64,000 nucleotides of DNA from Patescibacteria group bacterium (GTDB lineage Bacteria > Patescibacteriota > Patescibacteriia > 2-01-FULL-39-33), in assembly GCA_041649575.1 (NCBI GenBank), contig JBAZMW010000003.1:122102-186101 (forward strand). Direction: 5' to 3'. Every line of letters starts with the position of its first letter. Position 1 is the stretch's first letter. The notes under the pieces are model-generated. The model had not been told where the DNA came from, made no database searches, and saw nothing but the letters and a program-made list of their open reading frames with translations. Below are positions 44,101 to 61,284 of the stretch, piece after piece. The position numbers and the translations under genes are program-made.

Positions 44101-47042
44101 GAAGGTCTTTCTGCTTCTTCGTCTGGATTTTCACCCGACTCCGGAGCTGGCGGCGGTGGAGGAGGGAGAACTTCCCCAGATAAATCCCCAAGCGGTGCTT
44201 CTGAATCATCTGGCCGCATCACTTCAACGCTCTCTATTCTATTGGTATTTTCTTGCCTGCCATCTTCAAAAAGCAACAGCATCCCGGCTGTGGTATCCAC
44301 CAATCCCCTGAAGTCTCCGATAAAACTCGATCCGTCCGTACAGACCCCTGCTAGTTTATCGCCAGGCTTACAACCGCGAAGTACTGCAAGTACTCTTTCT
44401 ATTCTTTCTTTATCTTTTTTATCTTTATCTTCGGCGTCAGACTCTACCGGCGCAGGCCTAGGCGTTTCAACCGCCTCACTGGTCGCCGTCACCCTAGCTC
44501 TAACAATCTCGCCACCCGGCTTAGTAAAACCCATAGTAACAACCGCAGCAACTTTTAGATTACGGCCCTTGGGACCTTCAGTAAATGTAACCTCATGATA
44601 CTTCTCATTAATATTATCGCCCAGCTGAACTAGCCAAAGTCTAAAACCAAAACTTTGCATTAACCCTGATAAATATCCGACTTTTGCGGTTTCAAAAACG
44701 GGACCATTAACCGCATCACAATATTCTCTGCCAATTTCATCTACCAAAACTTGCACCGCGTGCTCTCTGCTTTCTGTTTCTATTTTGTCTTGTAATCCTC
44801 TAGCGCCAGCAGCTAGCTGTCTCATCCCCAAGGCTTCTGCTCTGCTAAGAATTGCTGAGAGCATGGCTTGCAGCTCTTGCTGTTCCGCGCTAAGCTCTGC
44901 TTCTGCTTTTTCGTCTCCTTTTGGTGTTTCTGGCGCCGGCTGTTCGATGGCCGGTGCTAACACCTCAATCTTTGTTATTAAAGAAAGAAGGATCTTTTTT
45001 GGCTTTAAGTCACTTGGTTTGCCTTTGATCTTTACGCGGTCACCTTCCACTCCATCAAAAAAGCCCTCTTCTTTCATTCCGCCCAAATCTACCAAAATCC
45101 TAGTGCCAAGCGGCAAATCTTTTAATTGATCGGCTGTTACTTCCCGTCCTGACTGCTTAGCGCCTAACCGCTCGGCTACCTCATTCATTATTTGCAAAGC
45201 ACATTCCCGAACCAAACCTCTGGCGGTTTCTTCTTCGGCGCTTTCTTTTTTGGGCCGATAACGAGCCTCTTGGCCGGCTGCGTTTGCAGCTGTTCTAAAA
45301 AGAGTATTTTCTAAAGCAACCAAATCTTTAGGAAGAACTTTTTCTTCCTGCTCTGTCATGTTCTGGATGATTCTTTGTTTTGTTTCCTCTAAAGCCTTTT
45401 TGAAAGCAGGCAAAAATTTAGTCTCAGATTCACCACTTCCTTCTCCTTTTAATTCTTGATCTTTCGAGCCATTCACTTCGGCCATAATTTGCTCCGCGCA
45501 CGCGCTAACCAGATTTAGAACAGCCGGCTCCTCGGCATGCTTCCAGCCTTTTGTCGCCCTGATAGTTTTGTCGAGAATCGACTTTTCTAATTTATCTTTT
45601 TCTTCCGGCTTAATCCTTCTTCTCTCACTCTTCATTCTTTTGACTATCTCCTCTCGCGTCTGGTCTAATGCCTCTTTAAAAGCTTCCAAGAATGCCTCAA
45701 ACTCATTTTTTTCCTCCCCCTTTCTGATAATTTCAGTGTCAATGCTTTCGCCAACCTCGCACTGGGCATTACCCTGTAATAGAATACGACAATTTTTGGC
45801 TTTTCTAATAGCCAGCTTAGCGCCATCCTCAACGACAAATCTGCTATCTGTCGCACTCTCGACTTCCATGGATATCCCGGCTCCGATCTTTTCTCTGCGC
45901 CTGTCGTTCATCTCTCTTCTTCTTACTGTTTTGAGCCCCGATCCTGGCTTTTCTTCTATAGATCCGCCATTCTTCCCGGTGGTATCAAGCTCGGCTTCAA
46001 TTTGTTCAGCGAAATTTTGGGATGCTTGGCGCACCAGGTCTTTTTCGGCTGCCGACTGCGCCTCCAAGCCGGTTTCTTTTTGGACGTCACGCTCAACTGT
46101 CCCAAAAAATATAGTTTTTTGCATATCATTGGCTTCTTGCGCATCATCAGCGCCAGCTCTAATTATGGTTATAAATTCTTGCCTTCTTCCATTTAAAACC
46201 CTCTCAAAAACAGGCAAAAACCTGTCTCTAAATTCCGGTCTGATTTCTGGCGACTCGGCCGCTGGAGCCCCTCCTTTTATTTCTCCTTTAAACGCGGCAT
46301 GGGTTTCACGCAGCCCCTCTAATTCAGCTACAACTGCTTCTAACTCTTTATATAAAGGATTAAATTCATCTCTTAAAGCTTCTATATCTTCACCTATACT
46401 CTCTAAAGCCTGCACACTAAAAACCTTATTTATTAAAAAACCCAAAAAACGTTCAATTATTTCAATCTCCTGATTAATGATTTTTTGAGCCCACTCCGGC
46501 TTGGCCTCTACCTTGGCCCTGACACTCGATAAAATAGTTTTGCCTTCAACTATGCCTGATCTCTCTTTGGCCGCGTTAACTTCTGCTCTAATTTGATCAA
46601 GAGCAATTTCGGCTTCTGCCGTCTCGGCCGGTGGCGGCGGGATTTCAACGCCAACTACGGGGAGATGTAATCCTAAAACTGATCTGGCATTATCAATAAC
46701 CCACCGAGCATTTGCCTTGTTGATTACTCCACCACGCCCTTCTTTCTTGAAAGTGTCAGACATATCCAAAATGTGCTCCAGTCCGGCTAAGAGCTCATCT
46801 AATTCCGGCGCCTGCAGGTCGGACAAATCGGACAAAGCATTAAAAGAATCTACAGCAGCCCTGAATTCTTCTACTTCTGGTTCCTTTCTTCCTGAAAGAT
46901 TAGTCTTTATTCTCAAAAGAGCCCTATTTATTCTTTTTCTTTTTTCCTTGTTCTCTTTTCTCTCGGCCTCTGTTGCCTCTCCTTCGGCTCCGGGCTCAAG
47001 CTCGTCTTCTTTGTCTGGAGTTTTTGGTTTATAATCTCCCAT
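41196..47042 (-). CDS. giant (1948 aa) acidic, coiled-coil/low-complexity protein with central TM segment, tandem Pro/Ala-rich repeats and repeated small beta-domains
   Basis: Single ORF; E/K-rich, predicted coiled-coil N-terminal half; three copies of a small module (..LRGCKPGDKLAGVCTDGSSFIGDFRGLVD.. / ..FRGIKPGSMIRVTYLSATYEEKFLGLVEEG.. / ..LPLGTRILVDLGGMKEEGFFDGVEGDRVKIKG..); a hydrophobic stretch LIVSGALLGAAVALATPAVATSFAASAPLLTAVFFA; a tandem approx 36-aa repeat (GAQRVLDAGAPEAAPGGASAEHTPGAAPAE x2), which is a 108-bp DNA repeat at about 42366-42590; and a C-terminal approx 400-aa globular region. Confidence 0.75.
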   Translation of the reverse strand: MGDYKPKTPDKEDELEPGAEGEATEAERKENKEKRKRINRALLRIKTNLSGRKEPEVEEFRAAVDSFNALSDLSDLQAPELDELLAGLEHILDMSDTFKKEGRGGVINKANARWVIDNARSVLGLHLPVVGVEIPPPPAETAEAEIALDQIRAEVNAAKERSGIVEGKTILSSVRAKVEAKPEWAQKIINQEIEIIERFLGFLINKVFSVQALESIGEDIEALRDEFNPLYKELEAVVAELEGLRETHAAFKGEIKGGAPAAESPEIRPEFRDRFLPVFERVLNGRRQEFITIIRAGADDAQEANDMQKTIFFGTVERDVQKETGLEAQSAAEKDLVRQASQNFAEQIEAELDTTGKNGGSIEEKPGSGLKTVRRREMNDRRREKIGAGISMEVESATDSRFVVEDGAKLAIRKAKNCRILLQGNAQCEVGESIDTEIIRKGEEKNEFEAFLEAFKEALDQTREEIVKRMKSERRRIKPEEKDKLEKSILDKTIRATKGWKHAEEPAVLNLVSACAEQIMAEVNGSKDQELKGEGSGESETKFLPAFKKALEETKQRIIQNMTEQEEKVLPKDLVALENTLFRTAANAAGQEARYRPKKESAEEETARGLVRECALQIMNEVAERLGAKQSGREVTADQLKDLPLGTRILVDLGGMKEEGFFDGVEGDRVKIKGKPSDLKPKKILLSLITKIEVLAPAIEQPAPETPKGDEKAEAELSAEQQELQAMLSAILSRAEALGMRQLAAGARGLQDKIETESREHAVQVLVDEIGREYCDAVNGPVFETAKVGYLSGLMQSFGFRLWLVQLGDNINEKYHEVTFTEGPKGRNLKVAAVVTMGFTKPGGEIVRARVTATSEAVETPRPAPVESDAEDKDKKDKERIERVLAVLRGCKPGDKLAGVCTDGSSFIGDFRGLVDTTAGMLLLFEDGRQENTNRIESVEVMRPDDSEAPLGDLSGEVLPPPPPPAPESGENPDEEAERPSPLPEESPAERTERLLEKFRGIKPGSMIRVTYLSATYEEKFLGLVEEGEKPYIRTFNFVDNKAYATWIESVLDVELIAPPLESESAPLDLAEAERLVRELEESGKKPEDELEDESEESTLKSHEEEDDAAPFPPSDKTGEGPIIIETEEDKPTLDQARKAYYQARRERMKLIGKSEFRGKKGEQKLEQLRRSYEATLQESIRSKVQTGELSPLAMFPDRLAQGLVDLYDKENQLVWAEFEGKEKSRGERLKGWWQRHATGRLIVSGALLGAAVALATPAVATSFAASAPLLTAVFFARRILGGTGTAMGVDAALERFTKRFGDKGLAQKIYKEYAKEKRKDPKAAKAWLEKKFGSLSDKDLKEELARITALAERKGKRQVDVFGDRMKPVIDQMYQASLARMEERLTAIDTSGYSLADALSNQLDFYISTSHQAEEQTGRAERRKEIQRGVIAAAAGLVVGIQPWQWLRGHGAATGAAEAGSGGSGAEAPHAGVSPEGQPPAEGAQRVLDAGAPEAAPGGASAEHTPGAAPAEQPTVEGSNPPAEGAPRVPDAGAPEAASGGAPTEHTPGAAPAESATTETAPGPEAPEKLTEFEQALEVVEGVEAKGSHTVWGVIEKKCEAALGSTVKKAIESGQTYPAELGLPKDVDISKMTSEALKKLPVFREGKITYLVDSIKDAVAKSPTEFGLPANIDHVTPEDLAKLAGNDKFNELVASTFFDPKTGDTGKVLQAAGKLSEKTLSQIESNNAYLRQVVGLVKGSGVSLDQSAYDLMGQAHEAGLEPGRAAEILSSGVKGVAKEVVSFYSGNPKVVPGETLNGLVESHGADLAKKVLTFAGGEVAPDSAVGKLISGTEVLNSPNLESWVKLTRLVEAGTAPSKEVAKILSEAGITGQASAAKVTKGVLQFTLAESNIDVRINPAELVMEASHQGGTGEAVSRSAPYAGKNPAAVLKKVIEAVRPLQDKVVTA

Positions 47043-47067
47043 ATAAATTAATTATTTTTATAATCAA

Positions 47068-47385
47068 TTATTTTAAATTCTCGCGCCAAGCCGCGACATC
47101 GCCGGCCAGCTGTTCTTTGAAATTGGTGACCTCTTCCAAAATTATCGCCTGCAGATCAACCTTGCCGTTCAAAAACTGTCCGATTTCTTCGTCGGAGACG
47201 CCTTTGGCGGTGAGTTTGTCAAACTCCAACTGATCCGGCTCGGAGAACTCATCCATCAGACGGAAAGAAACGCGGTCGCTAACCACCTCGTTTAGTTTGG
47301 TGAGTAAAACTTGTTTTTTGGCTTCATCCAGGTTTTCCAGGCCCAAAATGTTGAAAACATTCTGATCCAAAAAGAGTAAATTCAT
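47068..47385 (-). CDS. small acidic hypothetical protein, co-operonic upstream partner of the 1948-aa gene
   Basis: 105 aa, pI clearly acidic (many D/E); 25 nt upstream of the giant gene on the same strand. Confidence 0.5.
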   Translation of the reverse strand: MNLLFLDQNVFNILGLENLDEAKKQVLLTKLNEVVSDRVSFRLMDEFSEPDQLEFDKLTAKGVSDEEIGQFLNGKVDLQAIILEEVTNFKEQLAGDVAAWRENLK

Positions 47386-47602
47386 AAATTTTATTTATTT
47401 TTTATTGTTAATTATTGAATTTTGTTTAAAATAACAGTATTCCAGCTAGAGCTTAATCTGGCTGTCTGAATATATTATACCAAACAAAGAGAATTGGTGA
47501 AAGGGTGGCAAAATAAATAATTATTAACTAATTTTATTTATACTTTTTGGCTAAAATTAGATAATATTCTTGATAAAAAAGAAGCTTTTTTCTCAACTAC
47601 TA

Positions 47603-47631
47603 TTGACAAATTATTTATGGTATGCTATAAT
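47603..47631 (+). promoter_or_regulatory. perfect sigma70-type promoter TTGACA-17-TATAAT (cassette copy 1)
   Basis: TTGACA at 47603-47608, a 17-nt spacer, TATAAT at 47626-47631; embedded in the conserved context TACTATTGACAAA...GTATGCTATAAT. Confidence 0.75.
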
Positions 47632-47716
47632 GAGTAGTTCGGTAAGTAACCGAAAGCACATCACAAAGGCAGCCCTGGTAATGACACCGGGGTTCGCAAG
47701 AGAAAAGGAGAAGACG

Positions 47717-48697
47717 ATGGGTACGGACACAGGAATAGAGGACGATGTGGTGATTATTGGTGAGGACACCGGCATCGCTGACACCGGCATCGCTGACACA
47801 AAGACGAGTCGGCCGAAGCGTAAAGTCGGAATCTGGCGGATCGTGCTGGGCCTGATCGGCCTGGCGCTCATCGCCTTCGCGGCATTGACCGCGTACGGCC
47901 TGATCGTCAAGACCGACGCGATTGACCGGCGTGTCGTCGTGCTGGAAAATCGCGTCGACGGTTTCGACGAACGCATCAAGGCCGGTGACGAGGCGGTCGA
48001 GGACATCTCCAAAGCCACCGACGATCTGTGGAGGCGAATGGCGAATGTCGAGAAACGCTTCGACAAGGATGGAGAATTCGCGAAGACCGTGGCCGCGGTT
48101 GCCAAGACCGCCGAAGACGTGACGGCGCTGCAAGCCGCGGTCGATGAAATCCCCGATGCCATGGCCGAGGCCACAGCTGGAATCGAAGGCCGGGTCAAAG
48201 CCCTCGAAGACGGCGCCGCGCAGGCACAGGAGAGGGCCAGCCGCGAGCTCCTGATGCTCAAGGTTGCCGAGATCCGCCGCGCGAATCCGGCGAGCGATGT
48301 CAGCGCCATGAGCGACGCGGACATTGGCAAGACGCTGGCTGGCAAGGGCGGCAACGATTTTCGCAAGAAGATTGAGGCCGCATACGTCAGCCTCGGAGCC
48401 AAGCCTGTCGTCACGGCACCAGCTCCGGCTCCAGCACCGGCACCAGCGCCAGCGGTAAATCTGGCTGAGGTAGAACGCCGGCTGGACGCGGCCGAGAAAG
48501 AAGTAAAACTTGTCGGGCAAGCCGCCAAAACCTTGGCGACGAATCCTGACAAGCCGAAGCACCTGGTGCGTGGCGCCAAGGCGAGGGCGCTCAAGCTGTT
48601 GGTGGATGTCCCCGACGACTTGCCACCCGCCTCCGCAAGACCGGCATCCCCGAAGAAGGACAACGTCATCCGGCCGGAGTTCGGGGACCGGCCGTAA
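47717..48697 (+). CDS. GC-rich island gene: coiled-coil protein with N-terminal TM helix and (PA)n repeat
   Basis: Start chosen at the ATG with strong RBS (AAAAGGAGAAGACG-ATG) downstream of the promoter; the track ORF starts upstream of the promoter at 47570. TM WRIVLGLIGLALIAFAALTAYGLIV; long Ala/Glu-rich helical region; PAPAPAPAPAPA run. Confidence 0.6.
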   Translation: MGTDTGIEDDVVIIGEDTGIADTGIADTKTSRPKRKVGIWRIVLGLIGLALIAFAALTAYGLIVKTDAIDRRVVVLENRVDGFDERIKAGDEAVEDISKATDDLWRRMANVEKRFDKDGEFAKTVAAVAKTAEDVTALQAAVDEIPDAMAEATAGIEGRVKALEDGAAQAQERASRELLMLKVAEIRRANPASDVSAMSDADIGKTLAGKGGNDFRKKIEAAYVSLGAKPVVTAPAPAPAPAPAPAVNLAEVERRLDAAEKEVKLVGQAAKTLATNPDKPKHLVRGAKARALKLLVDVPDDLPPASARPASPKKDNVIRPEFGDRP

Positions 48698-48730
48698 CAC
48701 GTACCTTTGATCGCGCACCTCGTGCGTTAG

Positions 48731-48780
48731 CCCCCCCAGACTCTGGCAGTTTCATAGAGTCTGGGGGGTGAATTATTTTA
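48731..48780 (+). terminator. stem-loop terminator after island coiled-coil gene
   Basis: CCCCCCAGACTCT-(loop)-AGAGTCTGGGGGG, an 11-13 bp stem, followed by a U-poor tail TGAATTATTTT. Confidence 0.55.
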
Positions 48781-49160
48781 GAGAGATTTTGCTTTTATAT
48801 ATTGACTAAACAAGACAAAACTGATAAAATTATTTTTGATATTTATGGATTACTGCCCCCGCCAGAATGACTCTGTCGGGCTGGCGCCCGACTGAACGGC
48901 GTTCAGCCGTTCGGGCGGGGCTCAGTCTTGCCCCGTAGAATACTGCTAAAGCAGTAGCGCCAGAGGCGCTATTCTACGGGGTGAAGTTAGAGCGCTCCCC
49001 CTGTCACGGAAGAGGGTCGCCGTAGGCGACGGGCAGAAGCGAGCCATGAGCAAAGCGAATGAAACGAGCGTAGATGAATGCGACCATGGGAGCATTCGGC
49101 TCTGCCAGGAAACATCGGGTGCAACCCGCGACCGTCAAACTTTTTACAAGTTAATATTTA

Positions 49161-49234
49161 TGGATTGGTAGCTCAGTTGGTTAGAGCGCTCCCCTGTCAC
49201 GGGAGAGGTCGCGGGTTCGAGTCCCGTCCAGTCC
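49161..49234 (+). tRNA. tRNA-Asp (GUC)
   Basis: Acceptor GGATTGG/CCAGTCC, D-arm GCTC-AGTTGGTTA-GAGC, anticodon arm CTCCC-CTGTCAC-GGGAG, T-arm GCGGG-TTCGAGT-CCCGT, discriminator G; CCA not encoded. It is followed by the hairpin ATCACCC-TTGC-GGTGATTTTTGTTTT. Confidence 0.85.
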
Positions 49235-49413
49235 GCTGGATAAAACAAAAATCACCCTTGCGGTGATTTTTGTTTTACTACACGAAGTGGAGAGGGGCTC
49301 GAACGGGTTGGCAGCGAGGCAAATCCGAAGGATGCAGCCGAGCGTCAAAAATTGCGAGCTGGCGCAGCAATTTTTGCCAACCCAGGACAGAGTGAGCAAA
49401 GCGAACGCCGAGA

Positions 49414-49430
49414 AGTCCCGTCCAGTCCGC
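49414..49430 (+). repeat. 17-nt direct repeat of the tRNA-Asp 3' end (AGTCCCGTCCAGTCCGC), att-like scar
   Basis: Exact copy of tRNA positions 49219-49235, about 180 bp downstream. Confidence 0.7.
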
Positions 49431-49539
49431 ATTTTTCTAGTCAGCCCCAAGTGGGCTGATTTTTGAGAATAAAAAAGAGCGGCGATCCACACGACGGTGA
49501 ATCTCCCGCTCTACAATGTCCTGATAGCCTTTCAGCGGT

Positions 49540-50268
49540 TTATCCTCTGCCACCGCCGACCAGTGCGCGTAACGCGTTGAACATGCCATCAGCCACTTGT
49601 GTCCTTCGCGTATCCATGGACTCAAGCATGGCATCGATCCTGTCGAAGCCGTCTCGACCGTACTCAAGAAGTGTTGGGCCATAGAATAGCCGCGTGAACA
49701 GTTCATTACCGACAAAACTCCATTCGGTGTAAGGCGTCTCTGAGTAACCGTCAGAGTTGTCGTGGATGTCGAAAACCCTGTTGGTGTGCGTACCGGCGAT
49801 GAGAATATCGCCACCCTCGACTTGTCCGGTTACAGTCACCAACGCCTGTTGAAGCCTCTCCATAAAATACTCCTGGTACCACTCCCTGACTTTCGTCAGG
49901 ACAATGTTTCTCGATTCCTCCGGAAGATTGGTGACAATGTGCCCGGTCTGCCTCGGACTGAGCCTGACCATCGAGTTGCTGCTCAACTTGTCCAAGAACA
50001 CGCCCAGACCGATGTTCAACCAGAGGCCATCCGTGAGGTTGAGAATGGGAGAGTTGATGATAAAGATGTGTGTCCTAGCTTGATCTGGGTCCTGGGCAAT
50101 TCGACGAATGACCTCCAGTCCGTCTTGTTGGTTGAGACAAAGGTGGGGACGAAAACAGCTTTCTTTCGCTTGCACTAGGGCAGCAATTCCCCTGTTAAGA
50201 TCCTGGTGCAACTGTGACCGGTCGTCAAAGTCAACCAGTAGGGTGTGGCTTTTCTTCTGATCCGACAT
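49540..50268 (-). CDS. GC-rich island gene: hypothetical alpha/beta protein (242 aa from ATG with GAGGAG RBS)
   Basis: Alternating beta-alpha pattern (HTLLVDFDD.., THIFIINSP.., DILIAGTHTNRVFDIHDNSDGY); no motif recognised. The track ORF uses an upstream TTG (to 50292). Confidence 0.55.
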   Translation of the reverse strand: MSDQKKSHTLLVDFDDRSQLHQDLNRGIAALVQAKESCFRPHLCLNQQDGLEVIRRIAQDPDQARTHIFIINSPILNLTDGLWLNIGLGVFLDKLSSNSMVRLSPRQTGHIVTNLPEESRNIVLTKVREWYQEYFMERLQQALVTVTGQVEGGDILIAGTHTNRVFDIHDNSDGYSETPYTEWSFVGNELFTRLFYGPTLLEYGRDGFDRIDAMLESMDTRRTQVADGMFNALRALVGGGRG

Positions 50269-50478
50269 ATTCTTCTCCTCGATGTTGACCAAAGAATGTA
50301 CGATTGTTAAAAAGGTATACTAAATTAAGTATTTTGTCAAATACTAAAACATAATAACTCATTATTACTATTGACAAGCCTAATATCTTGTGCTAAACTT
50401 ACCAGTTATCGATTTTGAGTCAGTACTTTGTGTAGAGCACGACAAACCGGTTCCGTGACATGAACAGGAGGACGACCA

Positions 50479-50856
50479 GTGAAAAACCACAATAGTTATG
50501 CCACTTACCAACCGAGCGACCAGCGGCTTCGCGAAGCCGACCACTGGGAGGTCTGGGATAAGCTACCGCCCGAGCTCAAGTTTGAGGCAGTGGCGGCTCG
50601 CGACCCCTCTCTGACCGCTCTGTGTGCCCGAGACAAGGGCGTGTACGTCTGGGTATTCCCGCACGCTGTACCTTCGGTCCAAAGTGGCATTGGACCATTC
50701 ATGGCTCTAGGGTCGCGACGCGGCAAGGATCGCATGGACTTCATCGTGACAACTCCTTCGGCGGATGACCCCATCGCGTTCGCCAAAGCCGAGAATGCGA
50801 GAAAGCTGAGGGAGCTGTCAAAGGGCGCCAAGGGTCCGAAGAACCATCAGAAATGA
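50479..50856 (+). CDS. GC-rich island gene: hypothetical 125-aa protein, GTG start with AGGAGG RBS
   Basis: Divergent from 49540..50268; preceded by TTGACA-17-TAAACT (50373-50401) in the ACTATTGACAA context. Confidence 0.5.
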   Translation: MKNHNSYATYQPSDQRLREADHWEVWDKLPPELKFEAVAARDPSLTALCARDKGVYVWVFPHAVPSVQSGIGPFMALGSRRGKDRMDFIVTTPSADDPIAFAKAENARKLRELSKGAKGPKNHQK

Positions 50857-51203
50857 GATGGGCGGTCGTCAAAGCCGCTACCGTCTCAACAACGCCGCAT
50901 CAGCTACCTGGTGCGGCCGTTTTAAATAATAATTTTGTTATACAGATACCAAAAGAGTTAATTTCCATCCACTCCAGAGTCCTCCGCCTAAGCTAAAGTT
51001 TTGGCGGACAAGTAAAACCTGCCTTGACTCGCGTCAGGCCTGGCGTCGCCGAAGGCTATGCCAAAGGCGCGTGAGGCAGGTCGTCCCGCAAGTCTCGGCA
51101 AAATAAACTCAGGACTCAATCACTTCCAAATCAATAAAATTTGCAAAAAGCGCTTTATATTTGATATAATAAAAACACGACTTAAAAAATAATTTATCTA
51201 ACT

Positions 51204-51407
51204 ATGCAAAAAATAGCTACAAGCATCTTTATCTTCGCGTCAATTGTTTTCGGCGTTATAGGAATTTTAGTAGTTTTAACAATGCCAGGACCCGGCAGAA
51301 CGAATTCGGATCTGAATGAATTATTTATTAGGCTTCTGTTCGCGACTGCCTTTATTATACTGCCTTCATTTGCATTAAGCATCGCCGGTAAGTATCTAAA
51401 AAAATAG
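51204..51407 (+). CDS. small (67 aa) two-TM membrane protein in AT-rich insert
   Basis: Two hydrophobic helices; AT-rich codon usage, unlike the surrounding island. Confidence 0.4.
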   Translation: MQKIATSIFIFASIVFGVIGILVVLTMPGPGRTNSDLNELFIRLLFATAFIILPSFALSIAGKYLKK

Positions 51408-51644
51408 ATTCCGATTTTAAACTTCCTTAGTCCAGTCTTTATATCAGATGTTCTTCTTTTTTTAATTCCATTGGAATATCAACAATACCCCCGTGCTCTT
51501 AAAAAATTTACAATCTCAAAATTAATAAAAAAATCCCCATCAATGGGGGTATTTTTATTTTCTGTCTTCTCTGGCGCCTATAATTACTGCCGCTATTACC
51601 AAAATTGTTAAAACCATAACTCCAAACAACATCATACCAAAATT

Positions 51645-52016
51645 TTACTTAATCTGTTTTTTCTTTTTAAACCAGCCGACGAGAAACAAGATGCCGATCA
51701 AAAACGCGACGCCGGAAAATTGTGCCGCCCATAATAATAAATACCACTCGAATTGATTTCTCGCTAGCGCGGCCAGATACAACGCGCCAGCTAAAATAAA
51801 AATAGTTCCCCCAACAATTTCATATTTCCAAGAGATTATCAGAATAACCAGCAGCACCAAGGCGGGAATATTGTGCATGAACAAACCGACAACCGTTCCC
51901 CAGAAACCCAGCTTCATATCGAAAATGTCCAGCGAAAACAACATCAAAAACAAAATAAACAAAATCGACAATATCCTTGGAATCCAATATATAAATCTAT
52001 TAACATTATTCCTCAT
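51645..52016 (-). CDS. hypothetical 4-TM membrane protein (123 aa) in AT-rich insert
   Basis: Four hydrophobic segments; no motif. Confidence 0.5.
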   Translation of the reverse strand: MRNNVNRFIYWIPRILSILFILFLMLFSLDIFDMKLGFWGTVVGLFMHNIPALVLLVILIISWKYEIVGGTIFILAGALYLAALARNQFEWYLLLWAAQFSGVAFLIGILFLVGWFKKKKQIK

Positions 52017-52318
52017 ATTTATTGTTTTATTTATATAATCAGTCTTTGAGTTTATTATACCACTTCCTGCCCGTCTCGCCCAATCCGGAATTTTAAAACC
52101 CGCCCCGACTCAACGAGGCTGGTGCGAGGCAGGTTGTCCCGCGGTCAGAACAGCTGCCGGTCGGCGCCAAGGCGGCTGCTTTAAAAATTTTAATTTTTTG
52201 CAAGCTGCACCAATGAATGTTAAAAATATTTCTTAAAAATAAATCAACCTTAAAATTTCTGGTAAATGAAAAAGGCCACCGCGACGTGCGATGGGCCTGT
52301 AGTCACTTCGCCACCTGT

Positions 52319-53098
52319 TTAGGCGGCTTCGTAAAGGTTCTGGTTGTAGTACTCCAACCGCAGACGGCCACGGCTGCCCTCGCCCGGTACGCCGACATAC
52401 TTGGTGACGCCGCAGTTGCGAGGCTTTTGTTCTTCGTCCAGTACGATGAACTCCTCGGCCGAGAGACGTTCGTAGTTGGCGCGCAGAGCCAGAATGTTCA
52501 AGTGATGGGTGACGGCCAAAACCCTCTTGCCGGAAAATTCCCGGACCAGGGTGTTGGCCCAATCGCGGTTACGCTGGCGCACATCAGGAACATTCTCACC
52601 CTGAGGGTAGCGATACCAGTAGCGACCCTCCAATTGATACAACGCGCGCTGTTCCGGATGAAGAGCAAAAAACACTCTCAAATCGTTGTAGACGTTGACC
52701 AGGCCGTGTTCCTGTTCCCGAATCCTTTCCTCTTCGTAGTACTTCACTCCTGCCAACTCCGGCCAACCGGCAATTAGCCCCCGCCAGGTCGCCTGCGTGC
52801 GAGCGTAGGGAGAAACGAAGACTACATCAGGCAGGTCTTCTATCTTACTAAGCGCCAGCCCCGTCTTCGTTGCCCGCGTGGCTTCGGCATCAGCTAGAGG
52901 TGCATTGGCATCGCTTACACCGAGACGATACTTCTGCCACACCGCTATAGCCAATGCCCTACACCTATCAGTTTCTGGGTTTTCGTCATACTTTCTGACG
53001 AACTGCCGATAAAGATCGTCCGCCTCCTTCATCCACTTGAGCTGGTTGTAGGCAGAAACATCGTGCCTTATGGCAATGATACAGGCTGGCCATTTCAT
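52319..53098 (-). CDS. histidine phosphatase (phosphoglycerate-mutase-like) family protein, GC-rich
   Basis: RH(G)-type motif IIAIRHDVSAYN near the N-terminus and a second His region VLAVTHHLNILAL. Start set at the internal ATG with GAAGGAGG RBS; the track begins at 53125. Confidence 0.6.
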   Translation of the reverse strand: MKWPACIIAIRHDVSAYNQLKWMKEADDLYRQFVRKYDENPETDRCRALAIAVWQKYRLGVSDANAPLADAEATRATKTGLALSKIEDLPDVVFVSPYARTQATWRGLIAGWPELAGVKYYEEERIREQEHGLVNVYNDLRVFFALHPEQRALYQLEGRYWYRYPQGENVPDVRQRNRDWANTLVREFSGKRVLAVTHHLNILALRANYERLSAEEFIVLDEEQKPRNCGVTKYVGVPGEGSRGRLRLEYYNQNLYEAA

Positions 53099-53321
53099 GG
53101 GCGTCAAGCCTCCTTCAAAAGTCACTCTCGCTGCTCTGGCAATCTGTCGTTACCGCCAGAAACCCAGAAATCCCTCTCGTCTATAAACCACATAAAGAAC
53201 GGTTCCAGTTCATCGATCGCGTCGCTCCAAACGTCCTAATATTAAACGTTCAATCTCCCTTGTGTTGGAGAATAAATTATTTTATTATATAAATTCCTTT
53301 TTGTCAACTGTCAAATTTTCT

Positions 53322-53350
53322 AAAACCCTCCCGATTAATCGGGAGGGTTT
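53322..53350. terminator. bidirectional terminator (CCCTCCCG..CGGGAGGG family)
   Basis: AAAACCCTCCCG-ATTAAT-CGGGAGGGTTT; a T-run on the minus side follows the pilin-like gene. Confidence 0.7.
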
Positions 53351-53374
53351 CAATTTTCAAACTCCGAGTTGCTT

Positions 53375-53890
53375 TTATTTTATTCCCAAAATTTCAAAAA
53401 TCATTTTCAGAATAACATAGGAGAGAAAAATAATCACCAGGCCGGCAATCGCCCAGATCATGGTGTTTTTGCCTTTAGTCACCCGGCCGGAATCGCCGCC
53501 GGAAACCATCCAGAGCAAGCCGCCGTAAATGAAAGCGATCAAAGCCAAGACTCCGGTGAACCCCAAGGCGGCGGTGATAATGTTTTTGGTGATGACTTGC
53601 ACCGCCTCAATGCCTTTTTTGCCGCCGGTAATGCCCTCCAGGGGATCTTTCAGACTCTGGGCCGAACCAGCGCTGCCGCCAGAAACACCTGTACCTTCTG
53701 GAGCGGAAACACCTGTACCTTCGGCGACACATTCCCCAACCTCAGAAAAAGGGTCGGCAAAACTACAGATTTGACCAGGGCCGCAATCGGCTTTAGTAGT
53801 ACAAGCTAAAACGATATTAGTGAGAGATAAAAATAAAAAAACAGAAAAACCAAAGAATGTTAATATCAACCAACCGCTTTTTCTTTTCAT
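53375..53890 (-). CDS. small secreted TrbC/VirB2-like (T4SS-pilin-like) protein
   Basis: Signal peptide, Cys-containing approx 60-aa segment, then a C-terminal two-helix hairpin LIAFIYGGLLWMVSGGDSGRVTKGKNTMIWAIAGLVIIFLSYVI. This shares the (Y)xG(F/L)LWM(T/V)xxG..K..SAF/LSY pattern with the N-termini of the two giant proteins. Confidence 0.65.
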   Translation of the reverse strand: MKRKSGWLILTFFGFSVFLFLSLTNIVLACTTKADCGPGQICSFADPFSEVGECVAEGTGVSAPEGTGVSGGSAGSAQSLKDPLEGITGGKKGIEAVQVITKNIITAALGFTGVLALIAFIYGGLLWMVSGGDSGRVTKGKNTMIWAIAGLVIIFLSYVILKMIFEILGIK

Positions 53891-54051
53891 AATATGTTAT
53901 TAAATGGTATATATTAATTCAATTATAGCTAATGGCAAAAATAAAGTAAATAACAATTTTAACAAAAAGAAAAACGGCCCGAGTTGCGCGATGCAACCCT
54001 GGCCGTTGTAGAACCGGTTGGAATTGGAATAGGTGGGTGATACAAGGCCGA

Positions 54052-54639
54052 CTATGAGAAGCGTATTCTCCTGATATGGACCTCTCCAATGGAGAGGCCG
54101 TGGAGAACCAGCTGACCCTCACCGTCGATCTTGATCACCTCGTCGCTGGCGATCGTCTGATAACCGCCCGCCTTCTGCTTGATCTTGAAAGGAGCGGTTA
54201 CGCGACTAAACTCCACGACGTCACCCGGGAAGATGGCCAGGCCGGAGCTGATCGGCTTACCAGGGCAGAACTTGATGTCCCTTTCCTCCACCGATCTGAT
54301 CGTCTTGGCCTTGGGCAACGAGGGCAAGCGAATGGCGCTGACTTTCGCCGCCACCTTCGCCTTGGCGTCGACCAGGTACGCGGGACGATAGATCGTCACC
54401 AGGACCAAGGCCAGGCCTAGTCCAGCAGTGACGTAGAAAGCCTTTTTCTTGCCCATGGCCTCCCAGACGATCCCGCCGATACCCAGAAAAATCATCAGGG
54501 CAATAGTCGCCTGAATCGGAATCCTCGCATGCTGGTCGTCTTCCTGTGACCAGAAGAAGACGCCCAGGATAATCCCGATAACTACGGCGAAGGCAATCAC
54601 CTTGCCAACCTTCTTAAGAAAACCCCAGGCTTCCTTCAT
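54052..54639 (-). CDS. GC-rich island operon gene 3: membrane protein (3 TM) with C-terminal beta-rich domain
   Basis: The start ATG overlaps the upstream stop (ATGA) and carries a GGAGG RBS. The track ORF extends to 54729. A compound hairpin plus T-run terminator lies downstream (about 53955-54000, minus). Confidence 0.55.
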   Translation of the reverse strand: MKEAWGFLKKVGKVIAFAVVIGIILGVFFWSQEDDQHARIPIQATIALMIFLGIGGIVWEAMGKKKAFYVTAGLGLALVLVTIYRPAYLVDAKAKVAAKVSAIRLPSLPKAKTIRSVEERDIKFCPGKPISSGLAIFPGDVVEFSRVTAPFKIKQKAGGYQTIASDEVIKIDGEGQLVLHGLSIGEVHIRRIRFS

Positions 54640-55208
54640 GGCAGCATCCTCCTTCCTAGTAGCTTCCGCAAGATTTCGACTATGCCTTGGCCAGCCAGTT
54701 CGGACTTCAGATCCTTCCAGAATGTCCAACTCCCGGCACCCGTGGCACTTCCGGCACCACCAGCACTTCCGCTGACCGTACCACGTTTGGTAGCACCGGC
54801 CAGGGTATTGTGTATAGCGTCAGCCAGCTCTTCGCGAAAGCTGAGTATCAGATACACAATGGCTACTGGCCAAGTGAAGAAGGCCGCCTTCCACCACCAC
54901 CATGACGGACAGTTATTGGCCGGTGACGGTGGCGTCTCATAGCCAAACACTTTGTCGAGCTGATGGAATATGTCTCGGCTGGCCGAGAAGAATAGCCCTT
55001 CGCCAAAGCCAACGAAGAATGCTTCCGCCGTGAAGACGATGGCGACGATAACCAGTCCGCAGGCACGGTAGTTATTGTTATACACCAGCCGCGCCGCCAG
55101 GTAGCCACAGTCGTAACTGATTCTCTCTGTCGTCATGCATGCCAGAAAGAGAAACAGCCCGACCGCTCCCGCCAAGAAGGCGAGATTGAGTATTATCCAG
55201 TTGATCAT
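54636..55208 (-). CDS. GC-rich island operon gene 2: 4-TM membrane protein with WWWW motif and Gly/Ser-rich tail
   Basis: Start ATG overlaps the stop of the upstream gene (ATGA); 190 aa. Confidence 0.55.
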   Translation of the reverse strand: MINWIILNLAFLAGAVGLFLFLACMTTERISYDCGYLAARLVYNNNYRACGLVIVAIVFTAEAFFVGFGEGLFFSASRDIFHQLDKVFGYETPPSPANNCPSWWWWKAAFFTWPVAIVYLILSFREELADAIHNTLAGATKRGTVSGSAGGAGSATGAGSWTFWKDLKSELAGQGIVEILRKLLGRRMLP

Positions 55209-55708
55209 GACCGCGTCTCCTTTCTGTTCTTCTCTGCCTTGGGCCGTATTACCCCACGACGAACCAGTTCGTATTCGCGAACTTCCCTAAATGCGCCCCA
55301 AAAACCACCCATGTAGGACTTCTTGAATCTCGGTCCCAATATCGTGACGGTCTTGGTGTTCGCCTGGCTGCCCTTGTCCCTGAAGGTGAACATTTCACGT
55401 TTACCTCTGACTTGGTGCTCGTGGTGCCCACTTCCCTTTTCATCGGTAATGATGATCTTCTTCTTCCCGTCGTGGAGCATCACGATTTCGGTGCGTGGAA
55501 TGGGTCGACCATCCTCGGTGAACTGAACGACGAATGCGGTTTGGCCGTCATCGTCCGTGTCAAAGGTCACCTCAATATCGTACTCCGCAGCCGCCGGCTT
55601 CTTCTCTTCTTTCTTGGAATCGCCTCTCGACTGGCCGCACTTCACGCACCTACCGGCCTTGAAGAAATTCACATTTCCACAGCCGCACGTCCAACTCTCG
55701 TTTGCCAT
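55205..55708 (-). CDS. GC-rich island operon gene 1: zinc-ribbon protein (CxC..CxxC) with unknown C-terminal domain
   Basis: Start at the ATG with AAAGGAGAG RBS (MANESWTCGCGNVNFFKAGRCVKCGQ..). The track ORF extends to 55807 but has poor RBS spacing. Confidence 0.55.
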   Translation of the reverse strand: MANESWTCGCGNVNFFKAGRCVKCGQSRGDSKKEEKKPAAAEYDIEVTFDTDDDGQTAFVVQFTEDGRPIPRTEIVMLHDGKKKIIITDEKGSGHHEHQVRGKREMFTFRDKGSQANTKTVTILGPRFKKSYMGGFWGAFREVREYELVRRGVIRPKAEKNRKETRS

Positions 55709-55832
55709 GGCCTTACTCTCCTTTCCTAATCCAACCGTTCTGTTAAAGAACTGGGCTGGAAACCGTTTTCCCTTGTTATACCCCTCTTCGCCTTGAAAAG
55801 GAGTCATTTCAGGGGAAAGCCGTTCCTCCAGC

Positions 55833-55861
55833 CTAACATATAATTATAGCATACTATCAAT
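55833..55861 (-). promoter_or_regulatory. perfect sigma70-type promoter TTGACA-17-TATAAT (cassette copy 3, minus strand)
   Basis: On the minus strand the sequence reads TACTATTGACAAAATATTGATAGTATGCTATAAT. It shares the TACTATTGACAA and GTATGCTATAAT blocks with the 47603 promoter. Confidence 0.75.
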
Positions 55862-55944
55862 ATTTTGTCAATAGTAAATTAAATAAATAAAAATAGCTAA
55901 ATTTAGCTAAAAACTTAAAACGCAAAGGTTAAAAAAATATAGAG

Positions 55945-56781
55945 TTAATCTTCTGCTTTAGGTTTTGAATTTTTACGCCTCGACTCGCCGAAGGCGAGAC
56001 AAGTAGCTTTGACTTTCAATATCCCTACGCCAGCTATGATTAATAGAACACTGATTATTTGCGGCAGCCTGATTCCCCACCACAGAGCCGTCTCGTCGAT
56101 ACGGATAAACTCCATAAAAAATCTGATCAGCCCATAGCCGATAAAATAAATGGCCAAGAGCGACCCTGGCCGGCAGTTGTTTTTTCTGGCCAAAAGAAAC
56201 AAGATCAAAAACAAAACAAAATCCAAAACAGATTCATACAAAAAAGCGGGCTGGAAATATCGGTTTGACAAAAAAATTTCCGGACGATTTTTCGGTTCGA
56301 TGGGAATGCCCCAGGGCAAGTTGGTGGGCCGACCAAACAACTCTTGATTGAAATAATTGCCCCAGCGGCCAATGGCCTGGCCCAGGGCCAGAGCGGGAGC
56401 AGCCAAGTCGACTACTTGCCAAAAGGAAATTTTCTTTTTTCGGCTCCAAAAAATTACCACGATGATGCCGCCAATAATGGCGCCATGAATCGCCAGGCCG
56501 CCTTGCCAAATTTTAAAAATCTCCGGCAAGTTGTGACTGTAATAGGACCAATCCAAAACAAAAACCTGATAAAGACGGGCGCCCAAAATACCGCCGACAG
56601 CCAGCCAAAGGCCCAGGTCTAAAGCCAGCTCAAATTTTAGGCCTCTTCTTTTGGCCAGAGAGCCGGCGACCAGAATGCCCAGAAGCAAGCCCAAGACGAT
56701 TATCAGACCATACCAGCGAAACGAGAGCGGCCCAAACTGGAAGATAATCGGCTGCGGATAAAAATAATGAAAAAAATTCAT
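55945..56781 (-). CDS. lgt: prolipoprotein diacylglyceryl transferase
   Basis: WYGLIIVLGLLLG.., QGGLAIHGAIIGG, GRWGNYFNQE signature. Confidence 0.85.
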   Translation of the reverse strand: MNFFHYFYPQPIIFQFGPLSFRWYGLIIVLGLLLGILVAGSLAKRRGLKFELALDLGLWLAVGGILGARLYQVFVLDWSYYSHNLPEIFKIWQGGLAIHGAIIGGIIVVIFWSRKKKISFWQVVDLAAPALALGQAIGRWGNYFNQELFGRPTNLPWGIPIEPKNRPEIFLSNRYFQPAFLYESVLDFVLFLILFLLARKNNCRPGSLLAIYFIGYGLIRFFMEFIRIDETALWWGIRLPQIISVLLIIAGVGILKVKATCLAFGESRRKNSKPKAED

Positions 56782-56811
56782 ATCTTAAAGTATAACAGAA
56801 AAATAAAAAAA

Positions 56812-56840
56812 ATCGACCCCCGAACCGGAGTTCGGGGGAA
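56812..56840 (-). terminator. terminator hairpin for the small GC-rich cassette gene
   Basis: CCCCCGAAC-TCCG-GTTCGGGGG, followed on the minus strand by TTTTTTTT. Confidence 0.65.
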
Positions 56841-56882
56841 TTAAAGCTTTGACCAAAGAAGTTCGCTTGGAGCAGTACAGGA

Positions 56883-57200
56883 TTACGTGGTGCCGCAATA
56901 GGCTGGCCGGTGGGAGCTGCGTCGCACAGTTCCTCTTGGCGGCCTTTCGGCTCTCCTGATCCGAGGGCGCTGAAGCGTGTTGGAGACTATCTGGTAGCCT
57001 CTCGCGACCAAGTCGCGGATGAATGCCTTCACCCTTCCACGTCCTTTCACCAGTGCCATATGCAGCTGATCCTTCAAATCCCGATACCTGACAAGATACC
57101 TTCTCATGCGCCATCGCTCCTTATGTTTTCCTCTGCCAGAATGCCCTATACTCATTTTCGACCAATCGGTTATGACCCTCCTTTCCAATGTCCACAGCAT
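56883..57200 (-). CDS. small (105 aa) basic protein in a self-contained GC-rich cassette, possible toxin-like/leaderless gene
   Basis: The ORF is flanked by its own TTGACA-17-TATGAT promoter (57209-57237, minus), with the ATG only 8 nt downstream of the -10 (leaderless-like), and by its own terminator. The protein is Arg-rich (..RRYLVRYRDLKDQLHMALVKGRGRVKAF..). The alternative plus-strand ORF 56910..57215 cannot be excluded. Confidence 0.4.
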   Translation of the reverse strand: MLWTLERRVITDWSKMSIGHSGRGKHKERWRMRRYLVRYRDLKDQLHMALVKGRGRVKAFIRDLVARGYQIVSNTLQRPRIRRAERPPRGTVRRSSHRPAYCGTT

Positions 57201-57259
57201 GATTGTTTATCATAGCACCAGGCAGGAGGTTTGTCAAACTTATCTTAAAGAAACTACGT

Positions 57260-58720
57260 TTAAACGGTTTCCACCTTGACCAAATTGGTCTTGCCCTGGC
57301 GGCCAAACGGATGGCCGGTGACAATAATTATGGTCTCGCTTTTTTTGGCCAGCTTGGCTGTTTGCACCAATGTCTTGATTTTGGCAATCAGGGCTTCGAA
57401 AGAATTAACCAGCGGCAAAACAAAAGCGCTCACCCCCCAGCTTAGGGACAGCTGATTGGCGGTAAAAACTGAGGGAGTCAGGGCAATGATAATGGCTTTG
57501 GGTCGAAAGCTGGAAATGTTTCTGGCGGTGGCGCCGGAAACCGTGGCGCAGGCAATCAACTTGACCTTAGTCAAATCCTCGGCCAAATCCTGGGCCACAA
57601 AACTCATTATTTTATTAAGCGATTGATTTTTGTATTTGTTTTCTTTGGCTTCTTGCTCCTCTATCTCCCTGGCCTCGATTTCTTTGGCAATGCGCGACAT
57701 CGCCGCCACGGCTCTAAGCGGATACTGACCGGTGGCGGTCTCTCCCGAAAGCATGATGGCGTCGGTGCCGTCTAAAACGGCGTTGGCCACATCGGAAACT
57801 TCGGCGCGCGTCGGCAAAGGATTTCTGATCATCGAATCGAGCATTTGGGTGGCGACAATCACCGGCTTGCCGGCTTGCCGGCATTCGTCGATAATCTTTT
57901 TTTGAATCAGAGGCAAGTCCTCAAAGGGCAGCTCGATGCCCAAGTCGCCGCGGGCGATCATAATGGCGTCGGCCGCCGCCAAAATTTGCGAAAAATTCTT
58001 CACCGCTTCGCGGCGTTCGATTTTGGCAATAAGCTTGGTGTGCGCGCCACTAGTCTTGCTGCTGCCAGCCGGATAATATTTTTTTTCCAGAGCAAAAATC
58101 TTTTTTCTTAAATTGACAATGTCTTTGGCGTCTTTGACAAAAGAGAGGGCGATAAAATCAACTTTGTTTTTGACGCCAAAATCGACATCGGCTAAATCCT
58201 TTTTGGTCAGTGGCGGACACTTGATAAGCGATTTAGGAAAATTCATGCCTTTGTGGGATTTGATGATGCCGCCGGTGATCACTTTGCAGACAATAGTGTC
58301 ATTTTTGATTTTGGTGACGCTTAACTCAATGGTGGCGTCGTCGATTAAAACCGGCTGACCCGCCTTGAGGTCGCGGTATAGCTCTTTATATTGAATGGGA
58401 ACGACGACAGCGGATTGGGACGACACTTGGCGCTTTGGGGGCACTAAAAAAACTTCCTGGCCGCGGCTGACTTTCAGGCCGGCTTGGCCCACTTCGCCGA
58501 TACGAATACGCGGCCCCTGCAAATCCTGAATAATGGCCAGCTGGCTTTTCAGGCTTTTGGCCACGGAACGCAAATTACCGATAAGCAACCGGTGGTGCTT
58601 GTAGCTGCCATGGGAAAAATTAAGACGCGCCACATTCAGGCCGGCTTTGATCATTTTTTCCATAATGATTTTGGTCTGAGAAGCCGGGCCAATGGTGGCT
58701 ACGATTTTGGTGCGTTTCAT
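57260..58720 (-). CDS. pyk: pyruvate kinase
   Basis: MKRTKIVATIGPAS.., NFSHG, MIARGDLGIE, MLSGETA motifs. Confidence 0.9.
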   Translation of the reverse strand: MKRTKIVATIGPASQTKIIMEKMIKAGLNVARLNFSHGSYKHHRLLIGNLRSVAKSLKSQLAIIQDLQGPRIRIGEVGQAGLKVSRGQEVFLVPPKRQVSSQSAVVVPIQYKELYRDLKAGQPVLIDDATIELSVTKIKNDTIVCKVITGGIIKSHKGMNFPKSLIKCPPLTKKDLADVDFGVKNKVDFIALSFVKDAKDIVNLRKKIFALEKKYYPAGSSKTSGAHTKLIAKIERREAVKNFSQILAAADAIMIARGDLGIELPFEDLPLIQKKIIDECRQAGKPVIVATQMLDSMIRNPLPTRAEVSDVANAVLDGTDAIMLSGETATGQYPLRAVAAMSRIAKEIEAREIEEQEAKENKYKNQSLNKIMSFVAQDLAEDLTKVKLIACATVSGATARNISSFRPKAIIIALTPSVFTANQLSLSWGVSAFVLPLVNSFEALIAKIKTLVQTAKLAKKSETIIIVTGHPFGRQGKTNLVKVETV

Positions 58721-58732
58721 AAAAATTAATTT

Positions 58733-59056
58733 TTACAACTTGATGGTTTTGACAATCCAATCGCCCAGGCTTTTGGCTGGCTGGGCTAAAAGGGGCAGGC
58801 CCCATTTCTCTCCCTGCAATGCCTTGATGATGCCAATGATAGCCAAAATGCCAATCAAAATATTGATCATCCAGCCAAAGACCGGGATCAGCATCAAGAC
58901 CACGGAAACCACAAACAACAAAACTCCCTGACTGGCGTGGAAGCGGACGAAGTCGCTTTTTTTCCTGACGGCCAGAGCCACCAGGCTTAGGATCCAAAGA
59001 TAGCTAATGGCACCCCAGATTTTTTCTTCTTGAGAGACGGATTTTTGTTCCGGCAT
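58733..59056 (-). CDS. small 3-TM membrane protein (DUF4870-like, hedged)
   Basis: 107 aa; ..WGAISYLWILSLVALAV..FHASQGVLLFVVSVVLM.. Confidence 0.5.
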   Translation of the reverse strand: MPEQKSVSQEEKIWGAISYLWILSLVALAVRKKSDFVRFHASQGVLLFVVSVVLMLIPVFGWMINILIGILAIIGIIKALQGEKWGLPLLAQPAKSLGDWIVKTIKL

Positions 59057-59073
59057 AGTTTTGAAATTATTTT

Positions 59074-59502: not shown

Positions 59503-59532
59503 CCACTATTATTATAGCTTATCGGCGGGAAT

Positions 59533-59567: not shown

Positions 59568-59583
59568 ATTCTTAAAAAATTTT

Positions 59584-61284
<1,701 letters not shown>

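Follow-up and report, generated by a model that had tools for sequence, protein, structure and literature searches.

The locus and its gene content

A 64-kb stretch of Patescibacteria chromosome (contig JBAZMW010000003.1; "the window" below refers to this whole stretch) carries two perfect sigma-70-type promoters, P1 and P2, which are inverted, face inward, and lie 8.2 kb apart (Table 1). P1 stands 85 nucleotides (nt) before the ATG of gene A and P2 134 nt before that of gene I; each promoter is on the strand of its gene, and both genes have ribosome-binding sites of the AGGAG type. With a GC content of 44%, a tmRNA gene, seven tRNA genes, smpB, infC, rplT, topA, dprA, relA/spoT, hisS, der, lgt, pyk, and groESL, as well as families typical of Patescibacteria (T4SS_pilin, DUF5663, DUF7670), the window is an unremarkable piece of Patescibacteria chromosome. 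The region between the promoters is flanked by lgt, pyk, groESL, infC, and rplT. Behind P2, downstream of lgt, follow genes I, H, and G and a gene for a VirB2-like pilin. The remainder, at 47.7-53.1 kb, holds gene A, a tRNA-Asp gene, genes B and C, an open reading frame (ORF) of 67 amino acids (aa; 51204-51407), a DUF7670 gene, and a histidine phosphatase gene, with unusually long spacers that each have a near-consensus promoter of their own. Two independent Logan contigs, both from the same public sequencing run, match the region at 100% identity and link it to host genes, and an independent contig joins gene A to host genes as well.

Table 1. Promoters, leaders, genes, and tRNA-flanking elements of the window and of related loci (L numbers).
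Feature	Position	Strand	Description
Perfect TTGACA-17-TATAAT promoter	39035-39063	-	third of the window; drives AI-2E family transporter gene 37966-39012
P1 core promoter	47598..47631	+	-35 TTGACA 47603-47608; 17-nt spacer; TATG (TRTG) 47621-47624; -10 TATAAT 47626-47631
Gene A leader, ~80 nt	47632..47716	+	two hairpins, fold z -2.9; ribosome-binding site AAGGAG 7 nt before ATG
Gene A, 326 aa	47717..48697	+	membrane anchor, coiled coil, PAPAPAPA linker; G+C at third codon positions (GC3) 0.74; orphan
tRNA-flanking element, window	49290-49430 (core also 49032-49106)	+
Gene B	49540-50268	-	divergent promoter 50312..50340(-): TTGACAAAATA..., 17-nt spacer, weak -10 TACCTT
P3 (putative third copy)	50366..50399	+	-35 50371-50376; -10 TAAACT 50394-50399; 10/12 hexamer match; drives gene C
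Gene C	50479-50856	+	driven by P3
VirB2-like pilin	53375..53890	-	Pfam T4SS_pilin PF18895; additional own promoter 53922-53950, TTTACT-17-TATAAT
Gene G, 195-aa membrane protein	54052..54639	-	C-terminal beta domain; start overlaps gene H stop; orthologues ~364 aa
Gene H, 190-aa multi-pass membrane protein	54636..55208	-	start overlaps gene I stop
Gene I, 167 aa	55205..55708	-	N-terminal CxCG...CxxC zinc ribbon, beta-rich domain, C-terminal GFWG motif
Operon leader, 134 nt	55709..55842	-	pyrimidine-arm/purine-arm hairpin 55819-55765 (CUCCUUUUC / GAAGAGGGG, outer UUUCCC / GGGAAA)
P2 core promoter	55843..55876	-	-35 55871-55866; TATG 55853-55850; -10 55848-55843
tRNA-flanking element, L010	9005-9148, 9301-9467
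tRNA-flanking element, L019	882-1046, 1114-1277, 1301-1464
tRNA-flanking element, L033	18750-18915	-
tRNA-flanking element, L044	10480-10650, 10697-10867
tRNA-flanking element, L065	11755-11900	-

The promoter pair

At both sites the hexamers match the consensus in 12 of 12 positions around a 17-bp spacer, the -10 is extended (TATG C TATAAT), and the tract upstream of the -35 is A/T-rich, as is every intergenic region of this genome. Exact TTGACA-N17-TATAAT occurs three times in the window, against 0.01 expected from shuffles. An original prediction, made from the sequence of the window, had reported a reused promoter cassette with perfect promoters at two sites. The first (47603-47631, plus strand) is exactly where it was placed; the second lies at 55843-55871 on the minus strand, 10 nt from the claimed 55833-55861, and the perfect site at 39035-39063 was absent from that report. 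The two 12-nt blocks said to be shared, TACTATTGACAA (47598-47609 and, on the minus strand, 55865-55876) and GTATGCTATAAT (47620-47631 and 55843-55854), are indeed exact at both sites. The likeness is in fact greater than had been claimed: from -40 to -7 (47598-47631 against 55876-55843), P1 and P2 are identical at 31 of 34 positions.

The significance of this likeness was assessed against 69 promoters with at least 11 of 12 hexamer matches and a 17-bp spacer, drawn from the window and from ~0.7 Mb of Patescibacteria loci. Outside the hexamers P1 and P2 share 19 of 22 positions, the best value among the 2346 possible pairs, while the runner-up pairs, one of which is P2 with its own orthologue, share 17 of 22. 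With a position-specific background, the P1-P2 likeness has P ~8e-7 per pair and ~0.002 after multiple testing. P1 and P2 are thus more alike than generic consensus explains. In local alignment the likeness is bounded exactly by the 34-nt core, and the flanks are not significantly similar (shuffle p 0.17 upstream and 0.14 downstream). The exact 34-mer was found only at P1 and P2 in the DNA examined.

The third copy of the original prediction, given as 50373-50401, does have the 12-nt TACTATTGACAA context, but its hexamers span 50371-50399 (2 nt away) and it agrees with the cassette at only 23 of 34 positions. Because an unrelated signal-peptidase promoter at 18590 on the minus strand matches the cassette equally well (23/34), this third copy is best regarded as generic.

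Two palindromes were noted at P2. A candidate operator within the spacer (TACTAT...ATAGTA) was rejected, as the palindrome is not conserved in orthologues. A perfect 16-nt palindrome, TAGCTAAATTTAGCTA, lies at 55894-55909 on the minus strand, 23 nt upstream of the P2 -35, and look-alikes are found upstream of P1 (GCTAAAATTAGAT, 47549-47561, plus strand) and in L010 (TGGCTAATTTAGGCCA, ~5560-5577). Their spacing to the -35 varies (23, 40, and 28 nt), and the likeness is not significant by shuffling; TAGCTAAATTTAGCTA could be an operator or a weak lgt terminator.

Conservation of the P2 operon

Relatives of the locus were recovered by a metagenome scan for relatives of Lgt followed by a profile search with gene I, and their Lgt proteins are 51-62% identical to that of the window (51% in L090). 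The order I-H-G-pilin after lgt is kept in L010, L015, and L090-L096, and in many cases pyk and two small membrane proteins lie close by. The orthologous promoters match P2 at 31/34 (L090, TGCTATTGACAAAATATTTAAAGTATGCTATAAT), 29/34 (L015), 25/34 (L010), and 24/34 (L094) positions. When the window is compared with L090, identity is 91% in the core promoter but only at the ~50% alignment baseline in the leader, in the 100 nt before the promoter, and over the initial 150 nt of coding sequence; it is 15-38% for the operon proteins and 51% for Lgt. Since the core is near-invariant where flanks and proteins have diverged, P2 is a promoter of long standing that selection has kept before a resident operon, and the comparison of orthologous sequences places it as ancestral to this conserved, pilin-containing unit.

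VirB2-like pilins are widespread and highly variable in Patescibacteria (PMC12102498). A pilin of this kind, a PF18895 T4SS_pilin, is encoded by the last gene of the operon; unlike the pilin genes and arrays described there, it belongs to a fixed four-gene unit after lgt with three uncharacterized partners. An AlphaFold model of the gene I product, built from 7 sequences, reached a mean pLDDT of 60.6, and no virB4 was found among the part of the window's ORFs that was scanned. Pilin domains also occur elsewhere in the window: two giant proteins, at 2391-12284 (3297 aa) and 12320-15553 (1077 aa), both on the minus strand, begin with an N-terminal T4SS_pilin domain (PF18895) followed by Ig-like and lectin-like domains, and they look like pilin-anchored surface adhesins.

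The spacer between lgt and gene I shows further peculiarities in the relatives. Several independent assemblies of relatives (Logan contigs L091-L094) break ~300 nt upstream of the gene I orthologue, within the AT-rich, repeat-containing spacer after lgt, and L015 and L095 have a duplicated 34-nt segment (agcttgattttgtcactgaatttccaaaggcggc) in the same spacer.

The operon leader

The leaders behind P2 and its orthologues are 134-247 nt long. In each there is a long hairpin whose arms are pyrimidine-rich (CCCUUUU or CUCCUUUU) and purine-rich (AAGAGGG), after which comes AGGGAA. The motif AGAGGG-N-AGGGAA is common to the window and the orthologous leaders, and the combination of hairpin and motif is found in three lineages, which are the independent lineages on which the leader comparison rests. 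In the window, AGAGGGG (55787-55781) lies inside the hairpin, ~75 nt upstream of the ATG. Fold z-scores are -2.7 for the window leader and -4.6 for that of L015; the leaders of L090 and L015 are 82% identical, against 30-50% for the proteins. The leader of gene A is without the motif. Rfam, searched at permissive thresholds with the region and one orthologous leader, gave no credible family. In L010, a 78-nt unit of the leader (5680-5840) that carries an AAGAGGG..AGGGAA..UUCCCU module is tandemly duplicated.

The arrangement recalls the STAB-SD elements, stabilizers of mRNA in 5' untranslated regions (Agaisse and Lereclus, 1996, as cited in PMC7509114), and 5' stem-loops. The resemblance lies in a long leader, in purine tracts like the Shine–Dalgarno (SD) sequence (AAGAGGG, AGGGAA) that stand well before the actual ribosome-binding site, and in a stable hairpin. 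The present leader differs in that its SD-like tract is paired with a pyrimidine arm resembling the anti-SD sequence. By this analogy we infer a role for the leader, which may protect the mRNA or tune its translation.

Consensus promoters in Patescibacteria and in phages

In the profile of the 69 promoters, the -35 is followed by AA, and T/R/T/G occupies -18 to -14. A TRTG extended -10 at -17 to -14 is the consensus of Gram-positive-type promoters (PMC2613000). Because the profile itself contains the AA and the T/R/T/G, most of what the shared blocks of the original prediction comprise is the house consensus. Perfect promoters, which that prediction took to be rare in natural genomes, are not so in this phylum: 17 are found in 715 kb of related DNA, against 0.4 expected from shuffles, an excess over chance of ~40-fold. 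They precede rpsO and several genes for secreted or envelope coiled-coil proteins in the relatives, and the AI-2E transporter gene in the window, where the site at 39035-39063 shows that perfect promoters serve resident genes. A near-perfect promoter (11/12) stands before nusA in relatives, and near-consensus promoters stand in the window before groES, the signal peptidase gene, a LytR-family gene, a class II tRNA synthetase gene, and the AI-2E transporter gene. Since perfect promoters are common in these genomes, they are no sign there of foreign or engineered DNA. Presence upstream of housekeeping genes, which the original prediction had named as the mark of a mere house promoter, thus applies to the general motif (groES, rpsO, nusA, and others) but not to the exact 34-mer.

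The proposal that these are high-expression promoters is supported. Every known sigma-70 element is at consensus, a gene with a ribosome-binding site follows, and the 34-nt core occurs twice with a likeness beyond the generic consensus. P1 and P2 are very probably strong promoters, with their activity, strength, and start sites predicted from these elements.

Early promoters of phage T4 have been described as being of the UP / -35 / extended -10 / -10 consensus type (PMC2613000), and P1 and P2 share with strong phage early promoters a consensus state at all elements, 17-bp spacing, TRTG, and an A/T-rich upstream tract. The pattern CTATTGACAA-N11-TATGCTATAAT, with 21 specified bases, is found in more than 120 viral contigs, mostly of low-GC phages, with unrelated spacers and downstream sequences. 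A similar pattern gave 8 single matches in 596 Gb of genomes (source genome not included), about chance level. The extended consensus is thus a favorite of phages, and the diversity of the phage matches speaks for repeated convergence on the RNA polymerase optimum and against a shared mobile cassette. As a resemblance of class that arose by convergence, the likeness to phage early promoters is therefore real, a point in favor of the original prediction. The present promoters differ from the phage ones in that they are chromosomal and serve resident genes, their orthologous position is kept across genera, and conservation extends to the spacer and to positions -40 to -36.

Gene content and composition of the region

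ORFs of at least 67 aa called at 47.0-55.8 kb were scanned against Pfam, with the exception of the 67-aa ORF at 51204-51407, and eight ORFs of this range, that one included, against PHROGs, NCBIfam, and PADLOC. No integrase, recombinase, transposase, phage, plasmid, or defence family was found among the ORFs scanned; the last three databases returned only weak coiled-coil noise and, in PHROGs (a family of unknown function) and NCBIfam, matches to the histidine phosphatase. Scans of viral sequences found no relatives of genes A, B, or C, and a sequence search of the PDB with genes B and C found nothing. An exact-protein look-up of the pyruvate kinase returned no record. Gene A matches no Pfam, PHROGs, NCBIfam, or PADLOC family, and an exhaustive HMMER search returned 0 relatives, a weak negative as it also missed the query itself, which is on a Logan contig.

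GC3 is 0.63-0.74 in the genes of the region, whereas most of the window lies at 0.41-0.51. In L015 and L010, too, genes I, H, and G are GC-enriched relative to their neighbors, and their high GC is therefore more likely a property of the genes than evidence of recent import. The GC3 rise is also broader than the region. It spans 47000-61600 and includes DUF5663 (0.58), lgt (0.54), pyk (0.61), two small membrane proteins (0.56-0.64), groEL (0.56), and groES (0.58), while the first 47 kb of the window are at 0.35-0.51; expression-linked codon bias or a regional effect is possible.

In these relatives, of no more than 62% Lgt identity, no counterpart of the 47.7-53.1 kb segment was seen. Since the tRNA-Asp gene directly follows the pilin gene in L010, the 4 kb that separate the two in the window may represent a variable insertion. 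The 3' end of tRNA-Asp is repeated in a single pair (49220-49236 and 49414-49430, 194 nt apart), with no further copy at up to 3 mismatches, so that the 8-kb region is not bounded by attachment (att) repeats. A tRNA gene with a duplicated 3' end and compositionally deviant orphan neighbors is what this segment has in common with tRNA-integrated genomic islands; it differs from them in having no integrase among the ORFs scanned, and its repeats bound a small structured element rather than the 8-kb region.

Interpretation of the promoter pair

The reading that we consider probable is that P1 and P2 are resident chromosomal promoters of a housekeeping RNA polymerase of the sigma-70/sigma-A type, P2 being ancestral to the lgt-adjacent operon and P1 a second instance. 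Each element would then be at its optimum: an A/T-rich upstream tract, TTGACA followed by AA, a 17-bp A/T-rich spacer, TRTG at -17 to -14, and TATAAT. P2 would drive the zinc-ribbon protein, the two membrane proteins, and the VirB2-like pilin from a transcript that opens with a hairpin leader of ~130 nt, and this hairpin, with its SD-like AAGAGGG and AGGGAA, would most likely protect or tune the mRNA, resulting in a high output of fast-evolving envelope or pilus proteins. At P1, the same 34-nt core would have come to stand before a lineage-specific orphan gene for a membrane coiled-coil protein, by copying of P2 or by selection toward the same optimum. As such, P1 and P2 are a known kind of element and reveal no new mechanism.

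Several observations weigh against this reading. Because the 19/22 agreement of P1 and P2 exceeds that of every other pair examined, simple convergence sits somewhat uneasily with it. For genes A, B, and C no relatives could be detected, their GC3 of 0.64-0.74 is strongly deviant, and a tRNA-Asp gene with att-like repeats stands among them; 47.7-53.1 kb could therefore be acquired DNA. The closest relative shares only 62% Lgt identity, which puts recent history below resolution, and copies within the genome were counted in this 64 kb, so that further copies of the 34-mer elsewhere would be uncounted.

The nearest alternative concerns the origin of P1, which may be a physical copy of P2 that was placed before a new gene by short-patch recombination or gene conversion within the resident chromosome. 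The top rank of the pair (31/34) among the 2346 comparisons argues for such a duplication or capture, as do the presence in P1 of two of the three states that are specific to P2 of the window (34-mer positions 2 and 21, with the L090 orthologue as reference) and the position of all three TACTATTGACAA promoters within 8.3 kb. Yet the likeness ends exactly at the functional core, with flanks without homology, and P2 is equally close (31/34) to an orthologue from another genus. Moreover, unrelated Patescibacteria promoters reach 17/22 and the 21 specified bases recur in more than 120 phage promoters unrelated to it, so that convergence is demonstrably easy; we regard duplication as plausible while leaning somewhat against it. 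The original prediction had favored phage, plasmid, or selfish-element promoters that drive the genes of an island, here taken as horizontally acquired. Such an origin would accommodate the elevated GC3, the orphan status of genes A, B, and C, the tRNA-Asp gene that lies within the region and has its 3' end repeated over 17 nt, the abundance of the extended consensus in phage contigs, and the unusually long intergenic spacers and leaders. It is difficult to reconcile with an operon that is syntenic, promoter included, in other genera, where the orthologues are GC-enriched too, with the lack of any integrase, transposase, phage, plasmid, or defence match and of viral relatives of genes A, B, and C, and with the absence of an att repeat around the 8 kb, the only repeat pair being 194 nt apart. 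For 53.3-55.9 kb, which is conserved synteny, the island framing is largely refuted, and for the promoters as a whole we consider a mobile origin improbable.

That the two 34-mers are the terminal inverted repeats of a transposon or an invertible segment, facing inward and bracketing 8.2 kb, is suggested by their orientation and by a repeat finder, which gives 56-nt arms at 77% complementarity. But no transposase or invertase was found among the ORFs scanned, the repeat is the promoter core and nothing more, each copy is correctly placed to transcribe its neighboring gene, and P2 stands at the orthologous site in relatives in whose flanking DNA, as far as examined, the P1-gene A unit was not detected; this possibility is very slight. 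An assembly chimera or engineered DNA is slighter still: the sharp contrast in composition, with GC-rich ORFs between AT-rich consensus promoters, might suggest it, but it is already refuted by the independent Logan contigs that link the region to host genes at 100% identity and by the same architecture at orthologous loci from other samples. A more far-reaching proposal, which we offer as speculation that is rather unlikely to hold, is that the 34-nt core, its spacer included, and the hairpin leader form a near-invariant, clade-specific expression module whose envelope or pilus proteins diverge beyond 25% identity, that P1 is the promoter of this module, transplanted and activating a newly born or acquired orphan surface gene, and that the leader is an undescribed cis-regulatory RNA. 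If this were true, promoter capture would be a route to high expression of new surface genes in bacteria with minimal genomes.

Promoters of Patescibacteria have hardly been described, and a full-text search of the literature found no paper that pairs the phylum name with the consensus hexamer. The locus gives a comparative picture of a strong promoter with the full sigma-70 consensus and TRTG, and the unit of promoter, leader, and operon around a VirB2-like pilin is a candidate for surface machinery that is strongly expressed and evolves fast in host-attached organisms.

Structured elements at tRNA genes and other observations

Directly 3' of tRNA genes (Asp, Glu, Gly, Ala, Met), past the tRNA terminator hairpin, lie GC-rich structured elements of ~140-170 nt, often in tandem (Table 1). 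In the copies whose ends were read (window, L010, L033, and L044), the 3' end of the element is an exact ~17-nt copy of the tRNA 3' end, which in the window, for tRNA-Asp, is AGTCCCGTCCAGTCCGC at 49414-49430. The element starts with the antisense of the T-arm of its own tRNA in the same four loci, and the start in L019 also fits. Given this start and this end, the closing helix covaries with tRNA identity. AAGCGAG and CGAGCG are conserved as unpaired motifs, and a covariance model finds copies outside its training set. In an alignment fitted to the model, compensatory changes occur in 28 of 39 pairs; the share of paired cells is 84%, compared with 34-40% when the partners are slid. There is no match in Rfam or in viral contigs. 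These elements, arguably more novel than the promoters, could be miniature tRNA-integrating elements that accrete at a regenerated att site, or a family of small RNAs.

The tRNA-Asp gene of the window is itself unusual upstream. Its promoter candidate, TTGACT-17-TAAAAT at 48802-48830 (in the segment 48802-49277), is 330 nt away, and the ~300-nt GC-rich leader between them (48838-49161) is highly structured (fold z -4.9), with a partial copy of the anticodon arm at 48985-49020 and a 16-nt repeat of the tRNA 5' flank (48836-48851 and 49151-49166). This looks like an insertion that separates tRNA-Asp from its promoter. It is exactly here, at ~48914 and ~49207, that two Logan contigs of the organism terminate or begin.

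The 478-nt gap between pyk and lgt (56782-57259, minus strand) carries a TG-containing 11/12 promoter at 57209-57237 as well as a strong terminator at 56817-56838. A non-coding RNA at 56805-57203 on the minus strand was considered and rejected despite this promoter and terminator, given a fold z-score of -0.27 and no Rfam match; the ORFs of the gap, of 74-109 aa and without a family match, are doubtful. Beside pyk in L090 and L096 lies a 23S rRNA IVP gene, and L090 also has a PPDK gene before lgt.

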